From the NCBI GenBank assembly GCA_035388205.1, contig DAOOPK010000002.1, positions 1-34,753 of the forward strand: 34,753 nucleotides of DNA. The letters run 5' to 3'. The notes beneath the pieces are model-generated. The model was not told the origin of the DNA. It saw only the letters and a program-made list of their open reading frames with translations, and did not search any database. Origin of the DNA: Bacteroidales bacterium. Lineage in GTDB: Bacteria; Bacteroidota; Bacteroidia; Bacteroidales; ML635J-15. The translations under genes and the position numbers were made by a program. The first letter of the stretch is position 1. Each line of letters starts with the position of its first letter. Positions 7,407 through 24,978 of this stretch are shown in pieces.

Positions 7407-8813
7407 TCAGTCAGTTATGATAATTTTCTTTGTTGCAATTATTTTATTGTCCTTAATTAAACGAACCAAATATATTCCGCATGGAAGATTATTACGCGAG
7501 AATGTAAATGTATGTTCACTGACATTTTTTATTTGACTTATAGTCTGTCCAAAAATGTCTTCAATGTTTAATGATATGTTTGTTAAAGGTGGCGTTATTT
7601 GAATAGTTGTTTGTGTGTTAAAAGGATTTGGAAAAATATTAATTTCATTTAAATCAAAGCTAACATTTTTTACAGAATTGGAATTAAGTATTTTAAATCG
7701 CATAATATTTGCATGCCAGCTATTTCCTTCAGAATAAATATGAGGTGGACCATAAGAATTTAAAGTATAATTATCAACATCATATGATACATATAGTGTG
7801 TCATTTACTTTTAAAAGAAATGGTCTATTTGCATTATACTGTGTAGTACCTATTTCAGGGCTGGTTCCAATTATAAATGGTTGGTTATTTGTTATTGTTG
7901 TGTCATATACTTTTGACCAATTAACATCATAAATAGCAACAACAATATTCCCGGATCTATGCTCGTGACCAGAATGATATGAAACGTAATAGTAATTACC
8001 ATCCCAGAGTACTCCTTGACTCCATTGTCCATCATTATTTAAATTGATATTATTAATATAATTCCATGTTGCATCGTATCGATATACATTTAATTTATAC
8101 ACAGTATCAATCATTACAGTAGTTTTAGCACATGTAATAATTTGATAAATGTCATTATTAAATAAACAACTGGCTCCCCATGGAGTATATATTTGATTAA
8201 AAACTGTATCATTTGAAAGTGGGTTAAGATTTAAATCATACTCCCATTTATGTAAACGAGGCAACCAGGTTGCTTGTTGGGTTGGCATTGACGGATGATA
8301 ATATCCAGGTTGTCTGAAAACACCGATCACGAGACGATTATTAGTGTAATCAAACATCATGTCAGCTTGACTGTCGCATGTGTCCAGAGCAAGCACAGTC
8401 GAATTTATAAGATTAAAATCGTCATCATATTTTGATAATCTTAAACTCCAATCATTTGTAGGTGCTATATGGTAATAATATGTTCCAACCATTTGCATTG
8501 CAAAATCACCAGCAGAAAAAGCTCCTGTAAGCGTTCCGTGGTTTCCAGTATATTCAAAATTTGAGTTATACTCTCGCCACCTGAAATACTGCATTGTACC
8601 TGATGTTGTAGGTCTGCCCGCATAAACAACATAAAATTTATTTTTAACCGAATGATGGAATATTCTGCAGAATACACCATTAGAATCTTCAGCATTAGGA
8701 GTCACCTGATAATGATTTAAAAAACTAAGTGAAATTTGAGCATTTACATTCTGTATTGAGATAATAATAATTGAAAGCAATAAAATTGTTCTTGTCAGTA
8801 TGGTGATTTTCAT
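7407..8813 (-). CDS. Secreted protein of unknown function with T9SS (Por) C-terminal sorting domain
   Basis: Signal peptide ending NVNAQ. The C-terminal ~80 aa (INIFPNPFNTQTTIQI...GIYLVRLIKDNKIIATKKIIITD) match the type A T9SS CTD pattern. The Tyr/Asn/Trp-rich body may be a beta-propeller. Confidence 0.8.
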   Translation of the reverse strand: MKITILTRTILLLSIIIISIQNVNAQISLSFLNHYQVTPNAEDSNGVFCRIFHHSVKNKFYVVYAGRPTTSGTMQYFRWREYNSNFEYTGNHGTLTGAFSAGDFAMQMVGTYYYHIAPTNDWSLRLSKYDDDFNLINSTVLALDTCDSQADMMFDYTNNRLVIGVFRQPGYYHPSMPTQQATWLPRLHKWEYDLNLNPLSNDTVFNQIYTPWGASCLFNNDIYQIITCAKTTVMIDTVYKLNVYRYDATWNYINNINLNNDGQWSQGVLWDGNYYYVSYHSGHEHRSGNIVVAIYDVNWSKVYDTTITNNQPFIIGTSPEIGTTQYNANRPFLLKVNDTLYVSYDVDNYTLNSYGPPHIYSEGNSWHANIMRFKILNSNSVKNVSFDLNEINIFPNPFNTQTTIQITPPLTNISLNIEDIFGQTISQIKNVSEHTFTFSRNNLPCGIYLVRLIKDNKIIATKKIIITD

Positions 8814-8968: not shown

Positions 8969-10006
8969 TTATTCGTTTATTTTCCAATGCCCTGTTTTAT
9001 CACTGCCAATACGTTCAATTTTTCCGTTGTTTCTGAGTTCTTTAATTCTTCGTCTTACGGTGCTTAAACTCAATTTCAATCGTTCGCTGATTTCATTAGC
9101 TGTTATTTTGTTGTCTTGCTTAATCAATGAAAATACAGTGTCATTTACAGTGTCAAACTGTGATTTTACAGTGTCATTTACAGTGTCAGCGAGAATGTGT
9201 GCGTCACGATTTTTTAGCGAATAATTTTCTTTTAGTAATAAGTTTGAAAGAAAGCGAATCAAAAACTTTTCTGTCCTGTGAATCCCTCTTGATAAGTCTT
9301 CGAAGTTAGCTCTTACTAGTGCATTTCGGAAATACCAAGAGTTGTGGGCAAACAAGTCGTTATTAACGTTTTTAAATCCTAATTTTCGCAAATATTTGAT
9401 AAAGAAAATGGCTGTTGTTCGTGTGTTGCCTTCGCCAAAAATGTGAATTTGCCACAAGTATGAAATAAAGTGTGCTATGTGTTCTATTATGTCCTGTTCG
9501 CTTAATCCTTTGTAGCTAAATATTCTTTCTTGTTCAAAATCATATTCCAAGCTTGCTTTCAAACTGTCGGCACTTGCATAGAGTACGGTTTCACCATTCA
9601 ACACCCATTCTATTTTCGTAATGTTGTAATCACGAATTTTTCCTGCAAATTTGTAAATGCCAGTAAACAATCTACGATGAATAGACAAGTATTCTGCCGG
9701 TGAAAAACTAAAGGTTTGCTCACTTAATATTTCAGTAATTCGTGCAGAAACCTTGTCCGCTTCTTCAGTGCGGTCTTCGTCTGTTTTGGTCGGGTTTTGT
9801 TGATAGTAACTGTCAATACGGCTTTTTACTTCGTCAATAGTTATAAGGCCTTCAATATTTTGTTTGGCAGTTTCGATGAGATATTCAGACGGTTTTAAGC
9901 CGTCCACTTGTTGCAAGCCGATAGCCATTTTCCAAACTTTTGCTTTCTCTGCTTTGTCTGGCTCACCTTGTCTTAAATATTCATCAAAGTTTTCCGTTGT
10001 TTTCAT
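8969..10006 (-). CDS. Fic/Fido-domain protein with VbhA-like N-terminal segment and C-terminal winged-helix HTH
   Basis: Fic core motif variant HIFGEGNTRTTA at aa 188-199 (nt 9410-9445), preceded by GKIRDYNITK. The N-terminus AIGLQQVDGLKPSEYL...ITIDEV resembles the VbhA antitoxin-like helix. The C-terminus ITANEISERLKLSLSTVRRRIKELRNNGKIERIG is a wHTH. Confidence 0.85.
   Translation of the reverse strand: MKTTENFDEYLRQGEPDKAEKAKVWKMAIGLQQVDGLKPSEYLIETAKQNIEGLITIDEVKSRIDSYYQQNPTKTDEDRTEEADKVSARITEILSEQTFSFSPAEYLSIHRRLFTGIYKFAGKIRDYNITKIEWVLNGETVLYASADSLKASLEYDFEQERIFSYKGLSEQDIIEHIAHFISYLWQIHIFGEGNTRTTAIFFIKYLRKLGFKNVNNDLFAHNSWYFRNALVRANFEDLSRGIHRTEKFLIRFLSNLLLKENYSLKNRDAHILADTVNDTVKSQFDTVNDTVFSLIKQDNKITANEISERLKLSLSTVRRRIKELRNNGKIERIGSDKTGHWKINE
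9134..9188. repeat. Internal tandem repeat in the Fic gene (4 copies of tacagtgtca; one 22-bp unit present twice)
   Basis: The 22-mer tacagtgtcatttacagtgtca occurs at 9134-9155 and 9167-9188. On the minus strand it encodes DTVNDTV twice, in the linker between the Fic domain and the wHTH. Confidence 0.9.
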
Positions 10007-11889: not shown

Positions 11890-13242
11890 TTATTTAATAA
11901 CCCCTGCCCGCAGTTTATATGTATAATCTGCATTTTGCAGGATCATATAATCCAAATCAACTCCCAACTCCTCCGCTTGTATGATAATTTTGTTTTTCCA
12001 TTTCTCATTTGCATTAATTTCTTTAACAATCTTGTTTATCTCCCTGTTACGGAACTCCAGATAAAGGCTGTCAACTGTTGTAAGTGTGTCCGAAATGGTT
12101 TTATTTATAAATTCAGATTCATAAGTAATAAGATATTTTTCGCAGAAATCATAAGGGAATAAATGATTTGTTGCTTCAGATGTTACAAGAAATACAAAAT
12201 CCTGACTTTCAATTTCCTGTTTATAATCAAGTTCATCAACATTCTTTACAGGATTACGTACAGGATAAACAGTTTTATTATAAAACCAGAATCCGCCGTT
12301 TGAAAAAATATTTTGTGGTATTGCAACACTTTCAGCATAAATAGTCCACCAATATGAATCTGATATTGCAAGTACTTTAGGTTTGATTTTTTCTTTTCCG
12401 TTATTGAATTTTAAAACAGGATACGAAATCTTTTTATATGGAGGATAGAAAAGCAAGTTCATGGTTTTGTACAGATCGTCATCCTGATTTCTAAGAGTAT
12501 CGGGGGTTTCCATTTTTAGTATTGAAAAATCAGCATAATCTTTATTTGTAATATTTTCCATATATTTAATTACAGTATCCATTGCAATTGAAGCTGCCCA
12601 AATTGTCCAGTGTGCACCCAGATCACAGTATATTTCGTATGTTGCCGTATCTTTCATCGAAACAATATAGCTATTTAAATCAATGATATTAATCCCTTTT
12701 TTATTAAAATTTTCCATGTAAGCCTCATAATTATTCTTTGATTTCTTTGATGGTTTATACTTGTCCGGTATCAGTTCAGGATAATATGAGGCTTTACCGG
12801 GAGAGAAAATGATGATCAGGTTTACTCCTTTTGTTTTTAAAATTTCCTGAGTCGCCAATAAGTTGTTTGTATTGTTTTCAATCTCTTCATCACCAATAAA
12901 AGTTCTACCGAGATAACTAATTATATATGATTCCTCAAATAAAACACCATCTTTTCCAATAACAGGTCCTTTTATGGGGGATTCACGTAATACAGAAAAT
13001 ATCATTTGATTGTTAAATCTGACTAAAAAGTTGTGAAATCCGATGTTTTCTTCTATGTATTTGATACATGAATCCTGATATGTTTCGTTCCAGATTGATT
13101 TGATCGAGATTTTCGGTTTAACTGCCGGAATATAGGCTCCATTTAATGGTTTTTCGTGAAACCAGCCCGTAAAATTCTGAATCATAGGAACAGATAAGAG
13201 TACCATAAAAAATAGAAACCATATTTTCTTAAATTTTTCCAT
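11890..13242 (-). CDS. AlgJ/AlgX-like (SGNH-like) O-acetyltransferase partner of the MBOAT protein
   Basis: 450-aa ORF with an N-terminal membrane anchor. Its start overlaps the MBOAT stop (ATGA at 13242). The LGAHWT motif resembles the DxxHW(T) signature of AlgJ/AlgX-type proteins. Confidence 0.6.
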   Translation of the reverse strand: MEKFKKIWFLFFMVLLSVPMIQNFTGWFHEKPLNGAYIPAVKPKISIKSIWNETYQDSCIKYIEENIGFHNFLVRFNNQMIFSVLRESPIKGPVIGKDGVLFEESYIISYLGRTFIGDEEIENNTNNLLATQEILKTKGVNLIIIFSPGKASYYPELIPDKYKPSKKSKNNYEAYMENFNKKGINIIDLNSYIVSMKDTATYEIYCDLGAHWTIWAASIAMDTVIKYMENITNKDYADFSILKMETPDTLRNQDDDLYKTMNLLFYPPYKKISYPVLKFNNGKEKIKPKVLAISDSYWWTIYAESVAIPQNIFSNGGFWFYNKTVYPVRNPVKNVDELDYKQEIESQDFVFLVTSEATNHLFPYDFCEKYLITYESEFINKTISDTLTTVDSLYLEFRNREINKIVKEINANEKWKNKIIIQAEELGVDLDYMILQNADYTYKLRAGVIK

Positions 13243-14669
13243 CAGAATCTGAAATAAATAAACGGGTTAAATCCACCTTTTGTAACAAATGACAATGATA
13301 TGATTGATAAGAAAAGCAATATAGTACCAACAAAAATATATTGTTTTATGTTATAATCGCTGTAAAAGAAGAACTTCTCGAGTCTGCTGCCAAATTTAGA
13401 TATGCCGATAAAAGCAAATAAACTACCAATAAATAGGAATACCCAAAATTTTTTGTCCATATAGTTAGGAAAAAGATTGCCATCAAATTTGAACATGCTT
13501 TGAATATATGCGATAGCATATTTGAGGCTTTCGGCGCGGAAAATAACCCAACCAATGAGAGTAATAATATAAGTAATAAATATCCTTGTGAATGTACCGA
13601 TTTTACTAAATAGTTTTATAAGAAATAGCCTGTCTAGAACAAGGAATAAGCCGTGGAATGCTCCCCAAACTACAAAATTCCAAGCGGCACCGTGCCATAA
13701 ACCAGAAATGATGAAAACTATCCAAAGGTTAAAATATAGGCGGTATTTTGATTTTACTTTATTTCCTCCCAGAGGAATATAAAGATAGTCTTTCATCCAC
13801 GAACCGAGAGTCATGTGCCAGCGTCTCCAAAACTCAGAGATATTTTGGCTGATATATGGATTGTTAAAATTTTCTGGAAATTTAAATCCTATCATTCTTC
13901 CGATACCTATGCCCATGTCTGAATAACCAGAAAAATCGTAGTATATCTGAAAAGAGTATGCAATAATGCCGATCCAGGCGGTTAGAGTCCCTATTTCTGC
14001 TGCAGGTCCAGCGAAGATTGTGTCAACGACTTGGCCTAAAGTATTTGCTATTAGAACTTTTTTTGCTAACCCAATCATAAAACGGTAAAGTCCAAGTATC
14101 CTATTGTCTATATTTTCATTCTTCTTTCTATCTACAAGTTCAATAGCAATTTCATTATATCTTACTATTGGGCCAGCAATAAGCTGAGGGAACAGTAAAA
14201 TAAACAGTAGGTAATCAAAAATAGAATCCAGACGCTTACTCTTTCCACGATAAATATCAATCGAATAACTTAATTTTTGAAAAGTATAAAATGAAATTCC
14301 TATTGGTAAAATAACTTTTGTCCAGCTTATCCCCTCTATACCAATTCTCCATAAAATATAATTCAGATTTTCGACGAAAAAATTGGCATATTTAAAATAT
14401 GCAAGTAAGCCTATATTTAATACAACAGAGGCAAAGAGCAACCATTTCCTTTCTTTTTGATTTTGGGAGATATCAATTCGTTTAACAATAAAAAAATCAA
14501 TAGCTACAGAGAAAAAGATAATAAACAAAAACTTAGGTGCTCCAAATCCATAAAAAATCAAACTTGCAATAAGCGCAATCCAATTTTTGTACTTTACATC
14601 AGCAATGTAATAAAAGAAAAAGAATAGCGGTAAAAAATAAAGTAAAAATATGCTACTGCTAAAAACCAT
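13242..14669 (-). CDS. MBOAT-family membrane O-acyltransferase (AlgI/DltB-like)
   Basis: 475-aa polytopic membrane ORF with FWRRWHMTLGSWMKDYLYIPLGGN and the conserved-His GLWHGAAWNF motifs typical of AlgI/DltB. Confidence 0.9.
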   Translation of the reverse strand: MVFSSSIFLLYFLPLFFFFYYIADVKYKNWIALIASLIFYGFGAPKFLFIIFFSVAIDFFIVKRIDISQNQKERKWLLFASVVLNIGLLAYFKYANFFVENLNYILWRIGIEGISWTKVILPIGISFYTFQKLSYSIDIYRGKSKRLDSIFDYLLFILLFPQLIAGPIVRYNEIAIELVDRKKNENIDNRILGLYRFMIGLAKKVLIANTLGQVVDTIFAGPAAEIGTLTAWIGIIAYSFQIYYDFSGYSDMGIGIGRMIGFKFPENFNNPYISQNISEFWRRWHMTLGSWMKDYLYIPLGGNKVKSKYRLYFNLWIVFIISGLWHGAAWNFVVWGAFHGLFLVLDRLFLIKLFSKIGTFTRIFITYIITLIGWVIFRAESLKYAIAYIQSMFKFDGNLFPNYMDKKFWVFLFIGSLFAFIGISKFGSRLEKFFFYSDYNIKQYIFVGTILLFLSIISLSFVTKGGFNPFIYFRF

Positions 14670-14727
14670 TAATACCTTGAAGTTTTAAGGACGCAAATAT
14701 AGAAAAATAAAAATATTTAATGAGGTA

Positions 14728-15354
14728 TTAGAAGTTTCTTCCAATGAAATATGTTCCCGTAATGTTAAATACTGAATTATTCATCGAATAGAATTCAGAA
14801 GACGAAAGATCAACAAATCCAAACGAATAATTTGCTTTAACCTGAAATTGTTTAAAATCAACACCACCACCAAAAGTTAAACCGGAATCAAATCTTTTAT
14901 AACCATATTCAGGGTCAAATTCAACCTCATGTTCAAACTCTTCGTCCATAACTTCAGAATGGTAAATAGATTTGCCCGCAATAGCTACACATGTATAAGG
15001 CCCAATGTTTCCAAATACACTTAAATTCCCAATAGGTACTTTATATCCTATTGTTATAGGAATATCAATACAACCTAGATTTAATCTTGATGTTCCAAAC
15101 TCGTCAACAACCTTATTTCCCTTGTTGAAAAATGTTACTGCTGCTCCGACGTATAAGAAACTCATGATTTCCAGTTCTGCAGCAGCACCAATCTGATAAC
15201 CCATCTTGAAACTTTGTTTAACGGTTTCATCCAAAGAGTTTTTTTCTATATAACTAGTGTGGCTTAATCCGATTTGAGGTCCAAAATATAAACCTTGTGC
15301 ATTAAGTGTTGTAAAAACACTTAACAAGATAAAGATAAATAATATTTTTTTCAT
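14728..15354 (-). CDS. Small outer-membrane beta-barrel protein (porin family)
   Basis: Signal peptide MKKILFIFILLSVFTTLNAQ. Eight-strand-like alternating pattern and C-terminal Phe (FIGRNF). Confidence 0.65.
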   Translation of the reverse strand: MKKILFIFILLSVFTTLNAQGLYFGPQIGLSHTSYIEKNSLDETVKQSFKMGYQIGAAAELEIMSFLYVGAAVTFFNKGNKVVDEFGTSRLNLGCIDIPITIGYKVPIGNLSVFGNIGPYTCVAIAGKSIYHSEVMDEEFEHEVEFDPEYGYKRFDSGLTFGGGVDFKQFQVKANYSFGFVDLSSSEFYSMNNSVFNITGTYFIGRNF

Positions 15355-15382
15355 ATTTATGAATTTTATGTTAATTTAGCCT

Positions 15383-15390
15383 TAATTTTG
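15383..15390 (+). promoter_or_regulatory. Candidate -7 promoter box (TAATTTTG) upstream of the WD40-caspase cassette
   Basis: Exact match to TAnnTTTG, 80 nt upstream of the ATG at 15470, in the 115-bp divergent intergenic region. Weak evidence in AT-rich DNA. Confidence 0.25.
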
Positions 15391-15469
15391 TAATTTAATT
15401 TAACTAATTAGTATAATTTTTTATACAGAAAAGCAAAAATATTAAAAAAAACCATATTAACAATATTCT

Positions 15470-16249
15470 ATGAAAAAAATATTATTTGTTACACTTTTAT
15501 GTATTCCTGTAAGCATCTTTGCTCAACAGATCATTCGGGGTTATTCGGCTTCGTTCTCTTACGGACTGCTTGCAAAAGGCGATGATTTTACCATACATTA
15601 TTCAGGCGATGATTATACTGCCACAGCCAGGAAAACCGAAGGAGGCAGTCTGGGATTGGGCTTTCCATTCGATTTTGGCTATAAGCGAAGCAGATTGGTA
15701 ATTACTCCGGGACTTGATTTTTTGACATCAAATTATCAACTTGATTTAGAAACAGACATTCCAGGTATAGACTCCGACAGCGACAGCCTCAAGTTGTCTT
15801 CATTTATGATCATCCCGAAAGTCGGGATAATGTATAAATTTCATTTTTATGTTAAATCTGTTCACATAGCTTTTGGTTTAGGAGCAGATGCCAACTATCC
15901 TGTTTCAAATAATATTACTTTAAAAACAAAAGATAAGGCCGAAATAATTGAGTATAATGCTGATTATAATGAAAACCCTCCAGAAGATTCCAATATTGAC
16001 TATATGGTATTTAAACCTAACACTGTTTATTCAAATATGGCAGATCTTGGTTTTCATATAAATCCAAAAATAGGATTAGATATTTATGTAACAAAATATC
16101 TGATTACTAATATAACAATTCATATTTCGCCACTGACAACTTACTCTGATAAGCCTATAATAAGGGGATATGCTGGTTTTGGTGCAAGTTATCTTATGCC
16201 ATTGGGCAAAGAAGATGATTCGAGATTATTACAATATTATAAACAGTAG
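15470..16249 (+). CDS. Exported beta-rich protein, possible outer-membrane barrel; first gene of the WD40-caspase cassette
   Basis: 259 aa. Signal peptide MKKILFVTLLCIPVSIFAQQ. Gly/aromatic-rich alternating segments (GSLGLGFPFDFGY, IAFGLGADANY, GYAGFGASYLMPLG). No terminal aromatic residue, so the barrel call is tentative. Confidence 0.5.
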   Translation: MKKILFVTLLCIPVSIFAQQIIRGYSASFSYGLLAKGDDFTIHYSGDDYTATARKTEGGSLGLGFPFDFGYKRSRLVITPGLDFLTSNYQLDLETDIPGIDSDSDSLKLSSFMIIPKVGIMYKFHFYVKSVHIAFGLGADANYPVSNNITLKTKDKAEIIEYNADYNENPPEDSNIDYMVFKPNTVYSNMADLGFHINPKIGLDIYVTKYLITNITIHISPLTTYSDKPIIRGYAGFGASYLMPLGKEDDSRLLQYYKQ

Positions 16250-16280
16250 TTAAATCAATTGATTATAAAATATTAGTTAT

Positions 16281-19200
16281 ATGAAAAAAATAATTATAAT
16301 AACAACAATAGTTCTGGCCGCGTTATCAGTTATTAAAGCTCAAGATGTTGTTCCGGTTGTTCAGGCAGGACACTCGGGTAGTATTTTATTTGTAGAGTGG
16401 GATCCCACGAGTCGTTATCTTGCAAGTGTTGATGCCAATAATGAATTGGTAATTAATGACCTTGTTTCAGGAAAAATGTTTTATAGAATGAAAATTCCGG
16501 GAGACGAAACTGTAAATGCTCTGAATTTTGAAAATGAAAATAAGCTTGTAGTTGCTACTTCAGCACAGATATTTAAATTTAATATGCGAAATCTTGAACT
16601 TGAAAAATCTTCAGGAAATGTCAATAAGAAAAAAATGACTGAAGATTTGAAAATTTATGGAGCTGTTCTAAAAAAAGGAGGGAAGTCATTATTTAACCGC
16701 GATGCATATACTTGGTTTACTTATGCTGCAAATTCAAATGATAATAAATATGTTTTAGCCGGAGACGAAAAAGGGCGTTTATATTATTGTAATTCAAATT
16801 TGAATACCAAAAAATTTGAAAACACTCATTTTTTAAGTATCAATGATATTGATTTTTCGGCTGACGGAAAGTTTGTTGCCGTTGCTTCTGCTGACAGGTC
16901 TATCTCGGTATGGAGATTGCCTGAATTTAAGTTTGAAAAAAGAATAATTCCTCGCAGCTTCAATGTTTGCGCTATTGATTCTCATCCAACAGACAGTCTT
17001 ATCGCATTTGGTGACGAATTGGGATTTGTGTATTTGCTTAAATTCGAAAATGATAAAGTAACCTGCGAAGGCATAAACGGACATAATGGGAAAATAAATG
17101 ATATTTGCTTTTCTCCAAACCCTCTTATTGTTGGTACTGCCGGAAGTGATAATCGTGCTGCTGTTGTTGACTTCGAAAACAAAAGTGTTCTTCAATATTT
17201 TACTCTTCATCCAAGAGCATCGAAAGTAAAACAAACATTTAATATAAAAAGTATTCAGGAAAAAGTAACAAACACAGAAAAAGGGAAACTATGGTTCGAT
17301 GAAAATGTGTATTCTGTTGCCATTAGTCCTGATGGAAAAACTATTGCTTATTCCGGTGGAAAATGGGGTCTTACAAATCCTGTTTTAAAAGTGTCATCAA
17401 TATCAAATTTAAATATTTTTGAGCCCAAAGAAAACAGAAAACCCAAAAAAGCAGATTTGGGATTAATGTCAAAAGAAAATCAACATATTTTTAAACAGTT
17501 ATATTTTGCTAGCGACAAGGAATTTTATGGTTTTGGCGAAGAAGATAGAGATAAGGGCGTTAGATTTAATACAACAATTACAGGTTATTCCGAGAAAGAT
17601 AAAACTACAATTGAATCCGTTTACAGAAATAACAGACCTCAAAATACTCTTGTTCTTCAGGCGTTCTATCCTAAAAATTCTGAATCTGATTATATAATTA
17701 AAACCGACCCTATCACAAAGGATGTTTATACTTGTCGTGGTTTTGATATTGAAAGACAGACTGGCGGAAAAACAATTAAATTTACCGGACACAGGGGCTA
17801 TATTAATGATTTTGAAATTGTAAAAGGTAAGGGTTATCTTGTAAGCTCTGCCGAAGATGCTTCAATGAACATCTGGGATATTAACACAGGAGAAAAGTTG
17901 TTGAGTATTTTTGTCGTTGATATGGGTAAACTGGTTTTTATTACTCCGGACAATTATTATATGGCAACTGGAGACGCTCTAACAGGCCTAGGATTTAATT
18001 TTGAAGGAAAAGTTTTTCCGGCCGAGCAATTTGATATCAAATATAATAGACCGGATTATATTTTGGAATCTTTCGGTTATTTTGATGAGGACATGATCGA
18101 ACTATACCACAAAGCCTATTTAAAAAGAATATCAAAATTAGGATTTACGGAAGAAATGCTTAACGGAAAAATCAATTTGCCAGAAATAGAGATAACAAAT
18201 CTGAATAATATTCAATTAAAAACCACCCAACCCGAAGCTCTTATCCAATTAAAGATGAAAGATGAAAATTATATTCTGGATAGAATAAATGTTTATGTAA
18301 ATGATGTTCCGTTATATGGTACAAGAGGCTTGTCTGTAAAAGATAAGTCTGTGAAATCACTTATGCAAGATATAAACATTCCGCTTTCTGCAGGACGTAA
18401 TATTATTTATATTTCTTGCCTGAATGAAAAAGGTATAGAATCTTTAAAAGAGGAATTGGAAATAGTATATGATAAAACCGACAAGAAAAAGCCGGATTTG
18501 TATCTAATTTCTTTGGCAGTTGCTGAATATGAACAGTCTCAATATAATCTAAGATATACAATAAATGATGGTCTTGGTTTTATAAAATTATTTTCCGAAA
18601 ACAGTAAGAATTTTGATAAGGTACACATACTTAAGTTTCATAATCAGGAATGTACAAGAGATAATGTACTTGCAATAAAAGAAGAGTTGATGAAATCGGA
18701 TGTTGATGATTATGTATATGTACATATTGCAGGACATGGGTTGCTTGATGATAATCTTGATTTTTATTTTGCAACTGCAAATATTGATTTTTCAAATCCA
18801 GCAAAAAATGGATTAAAGTATGACGAAATAGAAGGCTTGTTGGATGGAATACCGGCTCGCAACAAACTATTGCTAATGGATGCCTGTCATTCGGGCGAAG
18901 TTGATAAAGACGATGAATTTGCCATAAATACTGTTGGGGATGATGAAAATACCAGAGGTGTTACGATGTTTGCCACAAAGAACGAAAATAAACCTAAAAC
19001 AGGCTTACAAAATTCATATGAATTAATGAAGCTTTTATTTGCCGATTTAAAGAAAGGAACCGGTGCCGTGGTGATTTCTGCAGCATCGGGAGGTGGATAT
19101 GCTCTGGAAAACGAAGATATTGAAAACGGGATCTTTACATATTGTTTAATTCAGGCTGTTGGAAAAAGTAAAGCAGATACTGACGGAGATAAACAAATCT

Positions 19201-19313
19201 CGGTGTCTGAATTGAGAAACTATATTTTCGACGGAGTAAAAAGACTAAGTAACGGTAAACAGCAGCCAACTTCACGTAAAGAGAATTTAATGAATGATTT
19301 TATTATTAAATAA
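16281..19313 (+). CDS. Signal-peptide-bearing WD40-repeat protein fused to a caspase-like (peptidase C14) domain
   Basis: 1010 aa. Signal peptide MKKIIIITTIVLAALSVIKAQD. WD40 units include GHSGSILFVEWDP...LASVDANNELVINDL, FSADGKFVAVASADRSISVWRL, GHNGKINDICFSP and GHRGYINDFEIV...SSAEDASMNIWDI. The C-terminal ~275 aa carry the caspase dyad: HIAGHG (His819, nt 18735-18737) and LLLMDACHSGE (Cys869, nt 18885-18887). Confidence 0.85.
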   Translation: MKKIIIITTIVLAALSVIKAQDVVPVVQAGHSGSILFVEWDPTSRYLASVDANNELVINDLVSGKMFYRMKIPGDETVNALNFENENKLVVATSAQIFKFNMRNLELEKSSGNVNKKKMTEDLKIYGAVLKKGGKSLFNRDAYTWFTYAANSNDNKYVLAGDEKGRLYYCNSNLNTKKFENTHFLSINDIDFSADGKFVAVASADRSISVWRLPEFKFEKRIIPRSFNVCAIDSHPTDSLIAFGDELGFVYLLKFENDKVTCEGINGHNGKINDICFSPNPLIVGTAGSDNRAAVVDFENKSVLQYFTLHPRASKVKQTFNIKSIQEKVTNTEKGKLWFDENVYSVAISPDGKTIAYSGGKWGLTNPVLKVSSISNLNIFEPKENRKPKKADLGLMSKENQHIFKQLYFASDKEFYGFGEEDRDKGVRFNTTITGYSEKDKTTIESVYRNNRPQNTLVLQAFYPKNSESDYIIKTDPITKDVYTCRGFDIERQTGGKTIKFTGHRGYINDFEIVKGKGYLVSSAEDASMNIWDINTGEKLLSIFVVDMGKLVFITPDNYYMATGDALTGLGFNFEGKVFPAEQFDIKYNRPDYILESFGYFDEDMIELYHKAYLKRISKLGFTEEMLNGKINLPEIEITNLNNIQLKTTQPEALIQLKMKDENYILDRINVYVNDVPLYGTRGLSVKDKSVKSLMQDINIPLSAGRNIIYISCLNEKGIESLKEELEIVYDKTDKKKPDLYLISLAVAEYEQSQYNLRYTINDGLGFIKLFSENSKNFDKVHILKFHNQECTRDNVLAIKEELMKSDVDDYVYVHIAGHGLLDDNLDFYFATANIDFSNPAKNGLKYDEIEGLLDGIPARNKLLLMDACHSGEVDKDDEFAINTVGDDENTRGVTMFATKNENKPKTGLQNSYELMKLLFADLKKGTGAVVISAASGGGYALENEDIENGIFTYCLIQAVGKSKADTDGDKQISVSELRNYIFDGVKRLSNGKQQPTSRKENLMNDFIIK

Positions 19314-19350
19314 ATTAGTTATTGAAATAGTATTAACAAAACCATGAATT

Positions 19351-21405
19351 ATGAAAAAGTTATTATTGACAATAATTTTGATTTTCACAATATTTTTACT
19401 TAATGCACAATTTCCAACTTATGTAAAAGAACTTAAGATCGAACCGAATGGAAATATTAAAGTATCCGGAAATTTGGCTCAAGGGAAGGTAATCAATGAC
19501 TTAACTTGGGCGAGCAATAGTGCTGTAGCATGTTTCCCAAGCACTCAAAATTTAAAATTTAATGGAAAACATGTTTTATATTGGACAAGTATTCCGCCAA
19601 GAGCCGAGTTATTTATCAAAGTTATACCAGATAATCCGTCTGCAAATTTTAGCATTTATGCTTATCAGATCAGTACAAACGATTATTCTGTCGTACCGAA
19701 TCTGAATTCATGCGTTTCTTGTGAGGCGGAACACAAATGGGATTACCCGAAAGTTGGCAAAACACAAGATCATACAAGAGAAATTTCATTAAACTCTGTT
19801 GACAATTCGTATAAAATTGTCATCGGTGTTGTCGGTGCAGATGGATTATCTGAAGGCTCATACAAACTTGAATTAAGATTAGTTGGAGGAGAGGAGCAAG
19901 TAGTTATTCCACAGGAAACAGTAAAGGTATATGAAGTAGAAAGTAAAGCCAATAGTACAGTATCATATAAAGGCAATCTTAACACTGGAGTGAAAATACA
20001 TGATCTGTCATGGGCATCATCAAGTTCAAATGCATGTTGGCCCTCTACACAAGACCTCAAATTTAACGGTAATCATGTTTTATATAAAACAGTTATACCC
20101 CCGAGATCAGAAATGTATGTAAAAGTAATCCCCACAGACAAAAATGCAAACTTTAGTATTTATGCATATCAGGTAGGGGTTACCAATAATTCAATTGTTC
20201 CCAATCTGGCATCATGTATAACCTGTGAGGCAGAACACAAATGGGATTATCCGAAAGTTGGCAAAACACAGGACCATACAAGAGAAGTATATCTAAATGC
20301 GATTACGGAACCATATAACGTATTTATTGGCGTAGTAGGAGCAGACGGATTAACGACCGGAGAATATACCTTAGAAATAAAGATAGTAGGAGGGGAGAAG
20401 GAGGAGATTTTAGACCAAGCTGAAGTTAATGTAAACAATATAGAGTGTAAAGCTAATAATACCGTATCGTATAAAGGCAATTTAAATAATGGAGTAAAAA
20501 TACATGATCTTTCATGGGCATCAACTAGCTCAAACGCATGTTGGCCATCTACACAAAATCTCAAATTTAACGGTAATCATGTTTTATATAAAACAGTAAT
20601 CCCGCCCAGAGCCGAAATGTATGTTAAAGTAATACCCACAGATAAAAATGCAAACTTTAGTATTTATGCATATCAGGTAGGACTTAACAACAATTCTGTA
20701 GTTCCTAATTTGGCATCATGTGTTACTTGCGAGGCAGAGCACAAGTGGGATTATCCTAAAGTAGGAAAAACCCAGGATCACACACGTGAGATATATCTTA
20801 ATTCAATTGATAATTCGTATAATATTTATATCGGTGTTGTTGGAGCAGATGGGTTAACGACAGGAGAATATACTCTCGAAATAATGGTAGTAGGAGGGGA
20901 GGAATCAAATGAGGTGCAAGAAGAGGTAAAAGTAAGGACTTTTGAATCTGCTAAAAATAAAGTTACAGAGGTTAAAGGAAACTTGTTAGAAGGTGTGAAG
21001 ATACATGACCTGTCATGGGCATCAACAAGTTCAAATGCATGTTGGCCAGGAACACAAAATGAAAAATTTACAGGAAATCATGTCTTGTATTCCACAGAAC
21101 TTCCGGCAAATTCGGAAATGACAATAACTGTTATTCCTGATGACAAAAAAGCAAATTTCAGCATTTATGCATATCAGGTTGGTGTTGATAATAATGCTAT
21201 TGTTCCGAATCTGCCATCTTGCGTAACTTGTGAGGCAGAACATAAATGGGATTATCCTAAAGTTGGAAAAACTCAGGATCACACAAGAACAATTTCGGGA
21301 TTTACAGCTCTTAATAGTCCATATAAAGTTGTTATCGGAGTTGTTGGGTCTAACGGTCTGACAGAGGGGTCTTATACACTTAAAGTAGAAGTAAAATCGA
21401 GGTAG
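19351..21405 (+). CDS. Exported protein composed of four tandem ~168-aa beta-sandwich-like (pre-peptidase C-terminal/PPC-like) domains
   Basis: 684 aa. Signal peptide MKKLLLTIILIFTIFLLNAQ, followed by four homologous units. Each contains DL(T/S)WAS..(S/A)..AC(W/F)P, ANFSIYAYQ, an invariant CEAEHKWDYPKVGKTQDHTR, IGVVG..GL..G.Y.L, and (units 1-3) a VGGE linker. Confidence 0.85.
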   Translation: MKKLLLTIILIFTIFLLNAQFPTYVKELKIEPNGNIKVSGNLAQGKVINDLTWASNSAVACFPSTQNLKFNGKHVLYWTSIPPRAELFIKVIPDNPSANFSIYAYQISTNDYSVVPNLNSCVSCEAEHKWDYPKVGKTQDHTREISLNSVDNSYKIVIGVVGADGLSEGSYKLELRLVGGEEQVVIPQETVKVYEVESKANSTVSYKGNLNTGVKIHDLSWASSSSNACWPSTQDLKFNGNHVLYKTVIPPRSEMYVKVIPTDKNANFSIYAYQVGVTNNSIVPNLASCITCEAEHKWDYPKVGKTQDHTREVYLNAITEPYNVFIGVVGADGLTTGEYTLEIKIVGGEKEEILDQAEVNVNNIECKANNTVSYKGNLNNGVKIHDLSWASTSSNACWPSTQNLKFNGNHVLYKTVIPPRAEMYVKVIPTDKNANFSIYAYQVGLNNNSVVPNLASCVTCEAEHKWDYPKVGKTQDHTREIYLNSIDNSYNIYIGVVGADGLTTGEYTLEIMVVGGEESNEVQEEVKVRTFESAKNKVTEVKGNLLEGVKIHDLSWASTSSNACWPGTQNEKFTGNHVLYSTELPANSEMTITVIPDDKKANFSIYAYQVGVDNNAIVPNLPSCVTCEAEHKWDYPKVGKTQDHTRTISGFTALNSPYKVVIGVVGSNGLTEGSYTLKVEVKSR
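19411..21402 (+). repeat. Four in-frame tandem coding repeats (period 504 bp between units 2 and 3)
   Basis: Unit boundaries from the translated sequence: 19411-19893, 19894-20397, 20398-20901, 20902-21402. Units 2 and 3 share identical DNA runs up to ~38 nt. The similar antisense ORFs in the track (19770-20060, 20247-20564) are a by-product. Confidence 0.9.
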
Positions 21406-21414
21406 ATTTTACCT

Positions 21415-21444
21415 AATCCAAAATATCAGATGTTATTTTGGATT
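21415..21444. terminator. Hairpin between convergent genes (candidate bidirectional terminator)
   Basis: Perfect 11-bp inverted repeat aatccaaaata / tattttggatt with the 8-nt loop tcagatgt. It lies 10 nt after the stop of the 684-aa ORF and 17 nt from the stop of the convergent 242-aa ORF. The stem is AT-rich and there is no long U-tract. Confidence 0.5.
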
Positions 21445-21460
21445 TGATGACATGATTAAT

Positions 21461-22189
21461 TTATTTCTGAACGAACAGATAAATTATCCCTAATCTTATT
21501 TGGGTGTAATAGAAGCTAATGTCATTACCTAAGTTATCATCAAAAGAATTCTTTTTGTAAAAGCGACTTAGAGATCTATAAGCTTCGATTGAAATGACAT
21601 ATTTGTCATTAATAGAATACTTTCCGCCTATATTTATACCGGCTTCAAAGATATTGATATTGTTCTTATTATTGTAACTACTATCAACATCAGGTAAAAG
21701 CCCTCCTTCTCCTATTTTGACATTAATATCTACATCATCCGACATATATGCATTGTAGGAACTATATATTCCAGTAGTTATAGCCATTTTATCCGAAAAA
21801 GAATACATAAAAGGAATTTCAATATAGAAACCAACAAGTCGAACTTTTCCTGTAATATTTGCAGTATAATATGTTGGTATATTTGCAGGCATACCCGATA
21901 TATTAGTTAAAACTACAGTGTCTTTTTTTTGACTTGCATAATAATTAAACCAACGAAAATCAGTAGAAATTTGAGGGATAAATTTAATTTTATCTGTTAT
22001 TTTGATATTTTTTCCAAAACTAACATAAGCTCCTGGAAATATTTTTGCTGATGAGTTTTCTGTTATTTGTGTTGGCATTGCCCCTCCATAATTTGTTCCA
22101 ATTCCAAAATAAATCTGAGAGAAAAGAGCCTGCGGCAGATACAAAAGAAATATTAAAGATAAGATAATGAATAGCTTATTCATATTCAA
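21461..22189 (-). CDS. Small outer-membrane beta-barrel protein
   Basis: Signal peptide (LPQALFSQ) and alternating beta-strand pattern. Overlaps the upstream gene by 14 nt. Confidence 0.6.
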   Translation of the reverse strand: MNMNKLFIILSLIFLLYLPQALFSQIYFGIGTNYGGAMPTQITENSSAKIFPGAYVSFGKNIKITDKIKFIPQISTDFRWFNYYASQKKDTVVLTNISGMPANIPTYYTANITGKVRLVGFYIEIPFMYSFSDKMAITTGIYSSYNAYMSDDVDINVKIGEGGLLPDVDSSYNNKNNINIFEAGINIGGKYSINDKYVISIEAYRSLSRFYKKNSFDDNLGNDISFYYTQIRLGIIYLFVQK

Positions 22190-22871
22190 AGTTTAGTTTA
22201 TCTATAAACAGAACAGACCCTGCGTGTCCTTTCATCTCTTTTCCCGAAACACTAGAAAGCAAAATTACATGAACGCTATCAGGAATGGTATTTATTAAAT
22301 AATCTATATTAACTGAGAAAGGACTATAAGAATTAATTTCTCCCGAATAGGTATATTCACCTTTTGCAATAGTATCTCTTACTTCATTAGTGCCGTTATA
22401 TTTTGTGAGAGTGATAAAGATAACCAAAGTATCATTATCGGCAGGAAAGTACTTAAAGTAGCCGTTTAGTTTTGAGGGCTTTTTCGTAAAAGGCTTACCA
22501 ATAACAAGGTTTTCGCCTATTGGTAAATCGGGATTGAAATACCCCGAAGCAAGTATTCCTGGAATGGTTAAATCTTCACCCCACCATTTAGTCTCGAGTC
22601 TTAGGGCATAGCTTCCCGAATAAGAATCTGTAGTTTTAGTTACAGTAATGGGACCACCAATTACAGACAAATAATTTAGTCCGTCCCACCAGTCTCCCGA
22701 AGGCTTATCAAAACTAACTTCTCCTTGAGTTTGGGTAGTCCATACTTCAAAATCGCCTCCTGCCAGAGCTTCAGTAACTGTGGTTTCAGGTGGATCAAGA
22801 GGATCTTTATCGCAAGCGATGAAAGAAAATGTTGAGAGAAAAAACAATGCTATTATTATAAAAGATTTCAT
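22176..22871 (-). CDS. Lipoprotein with PCMD-like (putative carbohydrate metabolism domain) fold
   Basis: Lipobox SFIAC. Has GDFEVW...DWWDGLNYLS...TTDSYSGSYALRLETK...LNGYFKYFP...GSVLFIDKLNF, the pattern I associate with PCMD/PF13201 proteins. Recognised from memory only. Confidence 0.5.
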   Translation of the reverse strand: MKSFIIIALFFLSTFSFIACDKDPLDPPETTVTEALAGGDFEVWTTQTQGEVSFDKPSGDWWDGLNYLSVIGGPITVTKTTDSYSGSYALRLETKWWGEDLTIPGILASGYFNPDLPIGENLVIGKPFTKKPSKLNGYFKYFPADNDTLVIFITLTKYNGTNEVRDTIAKGEYTYSGEINSYSPFSVNIDYLINTIPDSVHVILLSSVSGKEMKGHAGSVLFIDKLNFEYE

Positions 22872-23740
22872 TGTTTAATAAATTTTTGAGAATGTATAAT
22901 GTCATAATATTCCACAGAAATAATATATGTACCTTCTATCAGATTGGAAATATTTATAAGTTGATTATATTGATTTTGAATGAGTTTATTGCCATTAAGG
23001 TCGGAAATATAGTAATTACAATTTATAAAGCGATCGTTTAGCATAATAAAATCGCTTGTTGGATTTGGGTAAACCTGAAAGTCTGAAAACGTTTCATCTA
23101 TAATTCCTGTATTATAATCAAGTTCTATTTTATCAATATACAAAACACTTTCTGCTATAGGGTCATCAGGATTTGATGAAACTGCCATGATATTTAAAAT
23201 CTCTGGCTCATATTCATTACGGTATTCTATGTCAAGTATTAACTCAGTATAATTATTTTGAGGTTCATAACTCTCATATAATGCAGTTGCAACAGTGTCG
23301 GGGACGTCTGTTCCGTCATTTCTTAACATCCACATACCTATTCTCATTTTATCATTGTCAATAGGTAAATATTTATACCAAAGCTTTAATTTATTGGGTT
23401 TTAAATTGAAATCTATTCCACCCGTAATACTCGTTTCCTGAGTCCAAAGATCAATATCAAAATCACCCAAAGTAATAAATCCTGGAGCGACAAAAGTTAA
23501 CACAGTTTTAGATATGAGTTTAACCGCATATTCACCCTCATACGAATCTGTAGTCTTTTCGGTTGTGATTTTATATATGGGCATAACATTAGTTGTAGAA
23601 TTTGCAGTATTCCATGAAACAGGATCTTCATGTCCCTGTTCTGCGGTATGCCATTCATCAAAACTGTTGTTGGGAATAGTCTGGGAAAACACTAATACTG
23701 TCAATGACAAAAAAATACAAATGTTGAATATTTTAACCAT
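22868..23740 (-). CDS. Secreted PCMD-like protein with T9SS C-terminal sorting domain
   Basis: Signal peptide. Paralogous pattern to the downstream gene (NNSFDEW...TTDSYEGEYAVKLISK...LKLWYKYLP...SVLYIDKIEL), followed by the CTD VYPNPTSDFIML...GTYIISVEY. 4-nt overlap with the next gene. Confidence 0.6.
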   Translation of the reverse strand: MVKIFNICIFLSLTVLVFSQTIPNNSFDEWHTAEQGHEDPVSWNTANSTTNVMPIYKITTEKTTDSYEGEYAVKLISKTVLTFVAPGFITLGDFDIDLWTQETSITGGIDFNLKPNKLKLWYKYLPIDNDKMRIGMWMLRNDGTDVPDTVATALYESYEPQNNYTELILDIEYRNEYEPEILNIMAVSSNPDDPIAESVLYIDKIELDYNTGIIDETFSDFQVYPNPTSDFIMLNDRFINCNYYISDLNGNKLIQNQYNQLINISNLIEGTYIISVEYYDIIHSQKFIKQ

Positions 23741-23808: not shown

Positions 23809-24978
23809 TTACCTCAAATTTTTAAAGCCATTTTCTATTTCGAAGCTAATTTTTTCGAACACTTCCTCAAAACTACCAATACCGCTTATTTTAACCACTC
23901 CATGAAGTTCGTTGTATTTTTCGATAACGGGTACAGTTTTAATTTCATGATCTTGTAATCTTTGAACAATCTTGGCAGTGCTTGAGTCGTAAGGCATACA
24001 ATCTTTTGTTTTACTTCTTTCGTCAAGTCGGCGGATTAGTTCGAGTGTTGGGACTTCGATTTCTATAATTTTTGATAATGATGATCTGTGTTTTTTTAAT
24101 AATCCGTCAAGAATATAAGACTGAACCAAGGTACGTGGAAAGCCTTTAAAAATGAAACCTTTTACGCCCTTAGAGTATTCAAGTTTTTGTTCTATAAGTT
24201 TTACAACAATCTCATCAGGAATAAGCTGCCCGTTATTATATAAATCCTGAACCTGTTTGCCTATTTTGGATTGTTTTGAAATTTCTTCACCGAGCATCGG
24301 ACCTGTAGCTACATATTCAAGACCATATTTTTTGGAGATGGCTTTACCCTGTGAACCTCGCCCTGAACCCGGATAGCCGAACAAAACTATATTTAACAAA
24401 CGTTTGCTTAATTCTGTTTTAATGATTTTGTTTATTTTGCCTCTTACATTTTCAATTGTATCTATTCCCTTAATGTTAAAAAACACGCCCTTATCTTTAT
24501 AAAAATTCAATACCGGCAATGTTTTCTGATTGTATTCTTTCAACCTGTTACGGATAACCATTTCATTGTCATCCGAACGCCCTGAAGATTCTCCTCGTTT
24601 AAGTAAACGTCTCACGGATTCTTCTTCAGGAACTTCGAGGCTTATAAGACAATTTAAAGAAGTATTGAGTTTTATCATTAAGCCTTCGAGAATATATGCC
24701 TGAATATAAGTTCTGGGAAAACCATCAAATAAAAATCCGTTGACATTTGGATTGTCAGTTATTGTTTTTTCGATGATTTGAACGATTATTTCATCAGAAA
24801 CCAAACCCCCGGAGGCAATAATGCTTTGAGCTTCTTTCCCCAGTTTGGATTGTTCTTTTATTTCTTTACGTAATAAGTCGCCTGTTGAAATATAAAACAA
24901 GTTGTACTCTTTAATCAGAAATTCGGATTGAGTACCCTTACCGGCACCCGGAGGTCCAAACAATGCAATATTTAACAT
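23809..24978 (-). CDS. adk: Tandem (duplicated) adenylate kinase fusion; N-terminal half canonical, C-terminal half divergent
   Basis: 389 aa. Half 1 (aa 1-190) has GPPGAGKGT, STGDLLR, DGFPRT and a short LID RGESSGRSDDN. Half 2 (aa ~194-389) repeats the fold but has GYPGSGRGS, ATGPMLG and KGFPRT. Confidence 0.85.
   Translation of the reverse strand: MLNIALFGPPGAGKGTQSEFLIKEYNLFYISTGDLLRKEIKEQSKLGKEAQSIIASGGLVSDEIIVQIIEKTITDNPNVNGFLFDGFPRTYIQAYILEGLMIKLNTSLNCLISLEVPEEESVRRLLKRGESSGRSDDNEMVIRNRLKEYNQKTLPVLNFYKDKGVFFNIKGIDTIENVRGKINKIIKTELSKRLLNIVLFGYPGSGRGSQGKAISKKYGLEYVATGPMLGEEISKQSKIGKQVQDLYNNGQLIPDEIVVKLIEQKLEYSKGVKGFIFKGFPRTLVQSYILDGLLKKHRSSLSKIIEIEVPTLELIRRLDERSKTKDCMPYDSSTAKIVQRLQDHEIKTVPVIEKYNELHGVVKISGIGSFEEVFEKISFEIENGFKNLR

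Follow-up and report, generated by a model that had tools for sequence, protein, structure and literature searches.

A strictly conserved gene pair of Bacteroidales encoding an exported WD40-caspase and a predicted outer-membrane beta-barrel

The window analysed here, a stretch of 34,753 nucleotides from a Bacteroidales bacterium of the ML635J-15 lineage (NCBI GenBank assembly GCA_035388205.1, contig DAOOPK010000002.1, positions 1 to 34,753 of the forward strand), carries the gene of an exported WD40-caspase that is strictly paired with the gene of a predicted outer-membrane beta-barrel. These are the first two of three open reading frames (ORFs) on the + strand, namely ORF1 (15470-16249, 259 aa), ORF2 (16281-19313, 1010 aa) and ORF3 (19351-21405, 684 aa), separated by gaps of 31 nt (ORF1-ORF2) and 37 nt (ORF2-ORF3). 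A preliminary description, made from the letters alone, had given the same frames and spacing, which were confirmed, and had read the three genes as one cassette. Across relatives, however, the conserved unit is the ORF1-ORF2 pair and not the trio. We propose, with about an even chance of being right, that this pair forms a two-gene envelope module in which a periplasmic orthocaspase, ORF2, works with the ORF1 barrel.

The association of the two genes is without exception in the material covered. Every ORF2 orthologue for which upstream DNA is available (37 of 37 distinct pairs) is immediately preceded, in the same orientation, by a homologue of ORF1. The pairwise identities of ORF2 among these pairs range from 46 to 90%, and the intergenic gaps span -1 to 137 nt, in most cases 5-12 nt. 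In the reciprocal direction, a metagenome scan with an ORF1 profile found ORF2 to be the next gene at all 11 loci with downstream DNA. ORF1 evolves faster than ORF2, the mean pairwise identities being 41% and 63%, respectively, and the identities of the two proteins are closely correlated (r = 0.94). One copy of the pair is present at every locus examined, a count that applies per locus and not per genome. The strict adjacency, the frequent translational coupling and the correlated divergence speak for a joint action of ORF1 and ORF2. About 45 full-length orthologues of ORF2 were collected, 52-90% identical to the window protein, and all of them come from metagenome-assembled genomes of Bacteroidales/Marinilabiliales obtained from digesters, rumen and sediments.

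The Peptidase C14 assignment of ORF2 is based on both its profile match and its catalytic residues. The protein consists of a signal peptide (aa 1-20), tandem WD40 propellers (approximately aa 28-562), a helical linker with an immunoglobulin (Ig)-like sandwich (approximately aa 575-735, the sandwich itself at about 635-730) and a C-terminal Peptidase_C14 domain (aa 738-1010). It matches PF00656 (Peptidase_C14) with 47 bits, against a cut-off of 21.4, over residues 748-1007, as well as many WD40 propeller models of Pfam. The catalytic His819, whose codon was checked at 18735-18737 (+ strand), stands in the motif HIAGHG, where a beta-strand ends, and Asp867-Ala-Cys869 of the motif DACHSG (18879-18887, + strand) provides the catalytic Cys together with a metacaspase-type Asp. 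H819 and C869 do not vary among 28 orthologues and are also retained in distant relatives, which upholds the earlier reading of ORF2 as a WD40-caspase with an intact His/Cys dyad. Moreover, IAGHG and DACHSG align with SGHG and DSCHSG of Arabidopsis metacaspase-4 (AtMC4) and yeast Yca1, and DACHSG is conserved across the wider superfamily. ORF2 belongs to a known protease family, and public records already label its orthologues "caspase family protein".

The AlphaFold2 (AF2) model of ORF2, built on the 28 orthologues, has a predicted local distance difference test score (pLDDT) of 78.6 and comprises a signal helix, beta-propellers at approximately 30-560 and, behind the linker and the Ig-like sandwich, an alpha/beta domain at 740-1010. 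In this model His819 and Cys869 end two consecutive core strands, the order of secondary-structure elements fits the caspase fold, and the core blocks of the caspase domain (residues 740-870) reach pLDDT values of ~66-92. The top Foldseek matches of the model are double WD40 propellers, corresponding to the N-terminal half. Searched against the PDB, the caspase domain gave no match as a single sequence and weak metacaspase matches as a profile (E 0.03-0.7). A further sub-threshold similarity is to the NCBIfam model caspase_w_EACC1 (65 bits versus a cut-off of 140), and PADLOC returned a weak match to the repeat model HEAT-ARM_XIII (21 bits, E 1.1e-5). ORF2 appears to be an orthocaspase of metacaspase type with catalytic competence.

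Orthocaspases cut after basic residues (PMC6426788), and because Asp867 occupies the metacaspase position of the DxCHSG motif, the P1 specificity of ORF2 is probably Arg/Lys as well. Directly after the catalytic Cys, the model has a disordered loop (aa 871-909, 18891-19007, + strand) with pLDDT below 50. This loop contains Arg892-Gly893 (18954-18959, + strand), which is invariant in the orthologue alignment and is a probable autoprocessing site. Similarly, of 20 superfamily members that were inspected, including some of only ~30% identity, most have a [KR]-G dipeptide ~20-30 residues past the Cys.

All three proteins start with MKK, whose two Lys make up a KK n-region; a markedly hydrophobic core comes next and then a cleavage motif of the type small-residue|Q, with cleavage predicted at A18|Q19 in ORF1 (signal peptide aa 1-18), A20|Q21 in ORF2 and A19|Q20 in ORF3 (signal peptide aa 1-19). 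In Bacteroidetes, substrates of signal peptidase I are marked by a Gln at position +1, a regularity known as the Q-rule (PMC5837995). The same heuristic recognizes a signal peptide with a Q-rule motif in 37 of 37 ORF2 orthologues, and the view that all three proteins carry Sec signal peptides is in accord with these A|Q junctions. Inspection of ORF1-3 revealed no further transmembrane-like segment and no lipobox, and Pfam and NCBIfam searches found no type IX secretion system (T9SS) sorting domain at the C-terminus, either Por_Secre_tail/TIGR04183 or type B, in any of the three, while the T9SS sorting domain does match the window genes at 22868-23740 and 7407-8813. Since ORF2 is Sec-exported and lacks both a lipobox and a T9SS sorting domain, it would reside in the periplasm by default, and a periplasmic location is the most likely one.

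ORF1 has no Pfam family match. Its AF2 model (pLDDT 80.6) consists almost entirely of long antiparallel beta-strands, and in a Foldseek search against the PDB all 25 matches at E <= 1e-3 are outer-membrane barrels, including OmpW, OmpA, Ail/OmpX and Pla/OmpT, with E values of ~1e-5 to 1e-3. Hidden Markov model (HMM) searches added a weak match to the barrel model TDE1717 (E 0.005) and none to the PorP/SprF, PorV or PorQ models. The signal peptide, the AF2 model and the Foldseek matches together place ORF1 among the outer-membrane beta-barrels as a predicted member, in line with the earlier impression of a beta-rich and possibly outer-membrane protein. The family is very small: of 1.84 billion representatives, only 17 clusters at 50% identity belong to it, and the profile search of this representative library gave no functional lead.

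In ORF1, the C-terminal tail GKEDDSRLLQYYKQ (16205-16246, + strand), which extends past the last barrel strand, carries the family motif LQ[YQF]YK. This motif is present in all representatives of the ORF1 family, the tail columns are invariant or near-invariant in the family alignment, and among the 8-mers of ORF1 the tail ranks third in conservation when the 37 pairs are compared. AF2 models it as a low-confidence helix outside the barrel. As a general rule, both termini of bacterial outer-membrane barrels face the periplasm, and by this rule the termini of ORF1 would be periplasmic too. Because the LQxYK tail is conserved although it lies outside the barrel of a fast-evolving protein, it is proposed to be a periplasmic docking motif. 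A conserved basic residue before the tail was also considered as a cleavage site and was dropped, as it is missing in the loci L002, L021 and L026.

Taken in sequence, the proposed module would work as follows. ORF1 and ORF2 would be co-transcribed and often translationally coupled; ORF2 would be exported by Sec, cut by signal peptidase I and retained in the periplasm, where it would act, alongside the ORF1 barrel, on the inner side of the outer membrane. Docking would probably take place on the periplasmic C-terminal LQxYK tail, through which the barrel could tether or regulate the protease. The two WD40 propellers may pick a ligand or substrate, with the Ig-like domain as a spacer, and the enzyme would mature probably by cutting its post-Cys loop at Arg892-Gly893. 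ORF2 would then most likely serve to process or turn over particular envelope proteins, which the propellers select. A comparable logic is found in Prc-NlpI of E. coli and CtpA-LbcA of Pseudomonas, periplasmic proteases that are recruited by outer-membrane adaptors with substrate-selecting repeat domains: in each case a soluble periplasmic protease is tethered and directed by an outer-membrane partner. The likeness is one of analogy only. Prc and CtpA are serine proteases of family S41 and their adaptors are TPR lipoproteins, whereas ORF2 is a clan-CD cysteine enzyme that brings its own propellers and is paired with an integral barrel, with no sequence relationship between the systems.

Several points weigh against this proposal. 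The signal peptides were judged by heuristics. The ORF1 model resembles known barrels only loosely, with TM-scores of 0.3-0.5. The whole-chain Foldseek search of ORF2 returned only WD40 hits, by which the caspase domain was swamped. Moreover, the genes downstream of ORF2 are variable, including TPR-CHAT proteases and a second WD40-caspase, and in other orders paralogues form tandem arrays; this variety has more the look of a recognition repertoire under diversification than of a protease for housekeeping.

The downstream genes themselves differ in more divergent relatives. In orthologous loci of 80% ORF2 identity and below, ORF2 is followed by a convergent T9SS protein, or by NadA or PanC. In L028 and L038 a second WD40-caspase paralogue follows, and in six loci of a rumen clade (L030, L031, L040, L041, L042 and L047) an exported TPR-CHAT protease stands behind ORF2 on the same strand. 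This protein (for example L030:9098-12580 and L042:9152-13138) is 900-1330 aa long and combines a signal peptide and numerous TPR repeats with a CHAT domain (E ~1e-53) at its C-terminus; it is thus a second exported clan-CD protease beside ORF2. At L001:12331-14871, where ORF2 is 73% identical, small genes including Peptidase_M78 and HNH lie downstream of ORF2 and look like a mobile or phage-derived insertion.

ORF3 is found behind ORF2 in the window and in L006, L011 and L013 only, where ORF2 is ~90% identical. Behind its signal peptide, an orphan domain of 168 aa is repeated four times. The repeats share 55-81% identity with one another, and every one of them has three conserved Cys as well as the invariant motif KWDYPKVGKTQDHTR. 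Profile searches of Pfam, NCBIfam, PADLOC and the PDB found no relative of ORF3 beyond noise, a weak PADLOC match to Cas8b (17 bits, E 0.0013) included, and the repeat has no relatives on the viral contigs of IMG/VR. The ORF3 family is small, with 29 proteins (P0121-P0149) of 2-6 repeats each; most have signal peptides, some of which are atypical for Bacteroidota. One could suppose that the three genes do form a true cassette, in which ORF3 is a dedicated substrate or regulator of the caspase. ORF3 follows ORF2 on the same strand by 37-61 nt at those four loci, a consensus scan recognized no terminator-like site in the ORF2-ORF3 gap, and ORF3 is exported as well, all of which would suit such a role. 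However, ORF3 is absent after ORF2 in all other orthologous loci, from ~80% ORF2 identity down, no caspase is encoded near its homologues in Saprospiraceae and in one further lineage, and the family exists independently of the pair, so that we hold this explanation to be improbable. The preliminary description itself had named lack of conservation in related genomes as grounds for giving up the cassette, and the conserved three-gene cassette is rejected here; its suggestion that ORF2 matures ORF3 likewise has no direct or comparative support. ORF3 is a separate exported repeat protein recently placed behind the ORF1-ORF2 pair, with which it may be co-transcribed in the lineage of the window.

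The preliminary description had also suggested proteolysis triggered by envelope stress or phage. On such a reading the pair would be a defence or abortive-infection sensor, in which the propellers detect a phage, a toxin or envelope damage in the periplasm and the caspase destroys envelope proteins or permeabilises the cell. Fusions of WD40 or TPR repeats with caspase or CHAT domains are typical of conflict systems, and ORF2 has in common with cytoplasmic caspase-like defence effectors, such as Craspase (TPR-CHAT, type III-E CRISPR), gasdermin-activating proteases and EACC1-associated caspases, that a clan-CD protease is attached to a scaffold of repeats. PADLOC matches ORF2 to its generic 'caspase' model, though weakly (28.9 bits). 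In addition, exported clan-CD proteases cluster with the pair, as in the six TPR-CHAT loci and the two with a second WD40-C14 gene, and the tandem arrays of 2-3 paralogues in distant relatives suggest diversification. Unlike those effectors, however, ORF2 is exported, and the window contains no CRISPR, gasdermin, NTPase or EACC1 partner; no specific PADLOC system model was matched, and ORF1 had no PADLOC match. The context in the window is one of housekeeping and envelope-polysaccharide genes and not a defence island, one copy of the pair per examined locus with correlated divergence fits co-inheritance, and no relatives of ORF2 were found on IMG/VR viral contigs. A defence role is therefore considered unlikely.

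A related thought is a sensor-protease switch, in which the LQxYK tail of ORF1 is the ligand of the WD40 propellers and is exposed or released when the barrel is perturbed or mis-assembled, be it by phage binding, toxins or outer-membrane damage, thereby activating the caspase. The activated periplasmic enzyme would cleave envelope targets, an apoptosome-like or DegS-like logic outside the cytoplasm, and adjacent genes for exported TPR-CHAT proteases or a second WD40-caspase could join the cascade. In the sigma-E envelope stress response, the regulatory domain of DegS binds the aromatic C-terminal motif of barrel proteins, and ORF2 would resemble DegS as a periplasmic protease that senses a conserved aromatic barrel C-terminus. 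DegS differs in being an inner-membrane serine protease with a PDZ domain that responds to unassembled outer-membrane proteins in general, whereas here one dedicated barrel has one dedicated tail. Such a switch is given only a small probability.

It has also to be considered whether ORF1 anchors ORF2 at the cell surface or helps to export it, with external substrates in nutrition or surface remodelling. Among the components of the T9SS attachment complex, PorU is a clan-CD peptidase and PorZ a double-propeller protein. The complex joins both to the outer-membrane barrels PorV and PorQ (PMC8545088, PMC5562754), so that a clan-CD peptidase and a double propeller on barrels recall the two proteins studied here. 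Precedents in Bacteroidota for a cargo gene beside its cognate barrel exist too, T9SS type-B cargo being encoded next to a dedicated PorP-like barrel (PMC9143113), and T9SS cargo genes are close by in the window. Nevertheless, ORF2 has neither a type-A nor a type-B sorting domain, its C-terminus being the caspase domain, and it is no lipoprotein. By HMM, ORF1 does not resemble PorV, PorQ or PorP/SprF, a barrel of ~240 aa is too small for the passage of a folded 110-kDa protein, and PorU is a C25 and not a C14 peptidase. Surface display or secretion is thus regarded as distinctly unlikely. Finally, Sec-dependent polymorphic toxins, including those of Bacteroidetes, have been described with a signal peptide, a beta-propeller or TPR region and a C-terminal caspase-like domain (Zhang et al. 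2012, PMC3482391), an architecture under which ORF2 would be a toxin with a C-terminal 'Tox-Caspase' on a propeller stalk. Such a toxin would have a variable C-terminal domain and an immunity gene next to it. In ORF2 the architecture and C-terminal domain are constant down to 46% pairwise identity, the downstream genes are variable and unrelated with no conserved immunity gene, and the partner that is conserved, a membrane barrel, is encoded upstream. This explanation is highly improbable.

ORF2 shares with orthocaspases and other bacterial C14 proteins, such as MaOC1 of Microcystis and the cyanobacterial WD40-C14 proteins, a p20-type C14 domain with a His/Cys dyad and the DxCHSG motif, and like ORF2 these are frequently fused to WD40 repeats (PMC3501461, PMC6426788, PMC5756287). 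The orthocaspases studied so far are cytoplasmic, usually with the caspase domain at the N-terminus followed by NACHT or WD40 (P0057-P0065). ORF2, in contrast, is an exported protein with the order signal peptide-WD40-Ig-C14, and its obligate partner is an outer-membrane barrel. That prokaryotic metacaspases can have N-terminal export signals was mentioned briefly in 2012 (PMC3501461), and about one in eight bacterial orthocaspases belongs to Bacteroidota (PMC6426788). In species-representative genomes, signal-peptide WD40-C14 proteins are in fact widespread in this phylum, with 76 loci, so that the architecture is less unusual than had been implied. Proteins of 1030-1700 aa with this arrangement are common in Cytophagales, Chitinophagales, Saprospirales and Flavobacteriales; the signal-peptide heuristic was positive in 33 of 40 distant WD40-C14 relatives, and in L054, L059, L062 and L068 such distant genes form head-to-tail arrays of 2-3 paralogues.

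Some of these relatives also have a barrel-like neighbour. In Cytophagales and Chitinophagales (L049:3659-9105, L050:3590-9045, L052, L055 and L060), an overlapping same-strand cluster of four genes encodes an exported protein of ~211 aa, a remote ORF1 homologue of ~243 aa, a lipoprotein of ~330 aa with weak VWA similarity and a WD40-caspase, the last being ~1032 aa long in Cytophagales. The ~243-aa protein of Cytophagales is related to ORF1 with an hhalign probability of 91.5% (E 8.6e-7) and has a similar aromatic C-terminal tail, KKKIYYED. Therefore, the association of a barrel with a caspase would reach beyond the Bacteroidales family. The cluster is carried by a cultured organism, Chryseosolibacter histidini, in which it could be tested.

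Literature searches found no paper on exported Bacteroidota WD40-caspases, their obligate barrel partner or the conserved tail, and no characterised exported WD40-caspase of this phylum, which agrees with the earlier statement that the arrangement matches no known system. Bacterial caspase homologues are currently viewed almost entirely as cytoplasmic effectors of death or defence, and most of the Bacteroidota relatives sampled here have export signals. The strict pairing with a barrel provides the first concrete handle on the function of envelope caspases, as it points to a probable binding partner and supplies candidates for the docking motif and the activation site. If the barrel does regulate the protease, caspase-type signalling would extend to the bacterial periplasm.

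Upstream of ORF1 lies a divergent intergenic region of 115 bp (15355-15469) with 14% GC, the AT-rich spacer that had been noted before. A promoter is inferred here from sequence, with a candidate Bacteroidetes-type -7 box, TAATTTTG, at 15383-15390 (+ strand). Within these 115 bp the full Bacteroidetes -33/-7 pattern found no match, and sigma-70-like matches in the promoter scan were no more frequent than expected by chance. Behind ORF3, a hairpin with a perfect 11-bp stem (21415-21444, + strand) stands between ORF3 and the next, convergent gene. Its stability is modest (-10.9 kcal/mol, z = -2.0 versus shuffles). Described earlier as the strongest hairpin of the window, it is the longest inverted repeat in 14600-22300 and ranks third across the whole window. 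No T-run follows the stem, and therefore the consensus terminator scan missed it; it is possible that the hairpin acts as a bidirectional terminator.

The gene divergent from ORF1 (14728-15354) encodes a 208-aa OMP_b-brl_2 barrel. It comes after an MBOAT/SGNH gene pair, is syntenic in close relatives only and is unrelated to the ~211-aa gene of the Cytophagales clusters. That MBOAT/SGNH pair (11890-14669, - strand) encodes an AlgI-like MBOAT protein and an AlgX-like SGNH protein with overlapping start and stop codons, which suggests polysaccharide O-acetylation. Farther upstream, a Fic/DOC-domain protein with a C-terminal winged helix-turn-helix domain is encoded at 8969-10006 (- strand). Convergent with ORF3, three overlapping genes (21461-23740, - strand) make up a second small surface-protein-plus-barrel operon, comprising a PCMD-domain protein that bears a sorting domain for the T9SS (22868-23740, - strand), a PCMD-domain lipoprotein with the lipobox FIAC (22176-22871, - strand) and a weak OMP_b-brl_2 barrel (21461-22189, - strand). 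Next to it, a 389-aa protein (23809-24978, - strand) contains two complete adenylate kinase domains in tandem and is kept in the syntenic relatives L004, L006 and L011.

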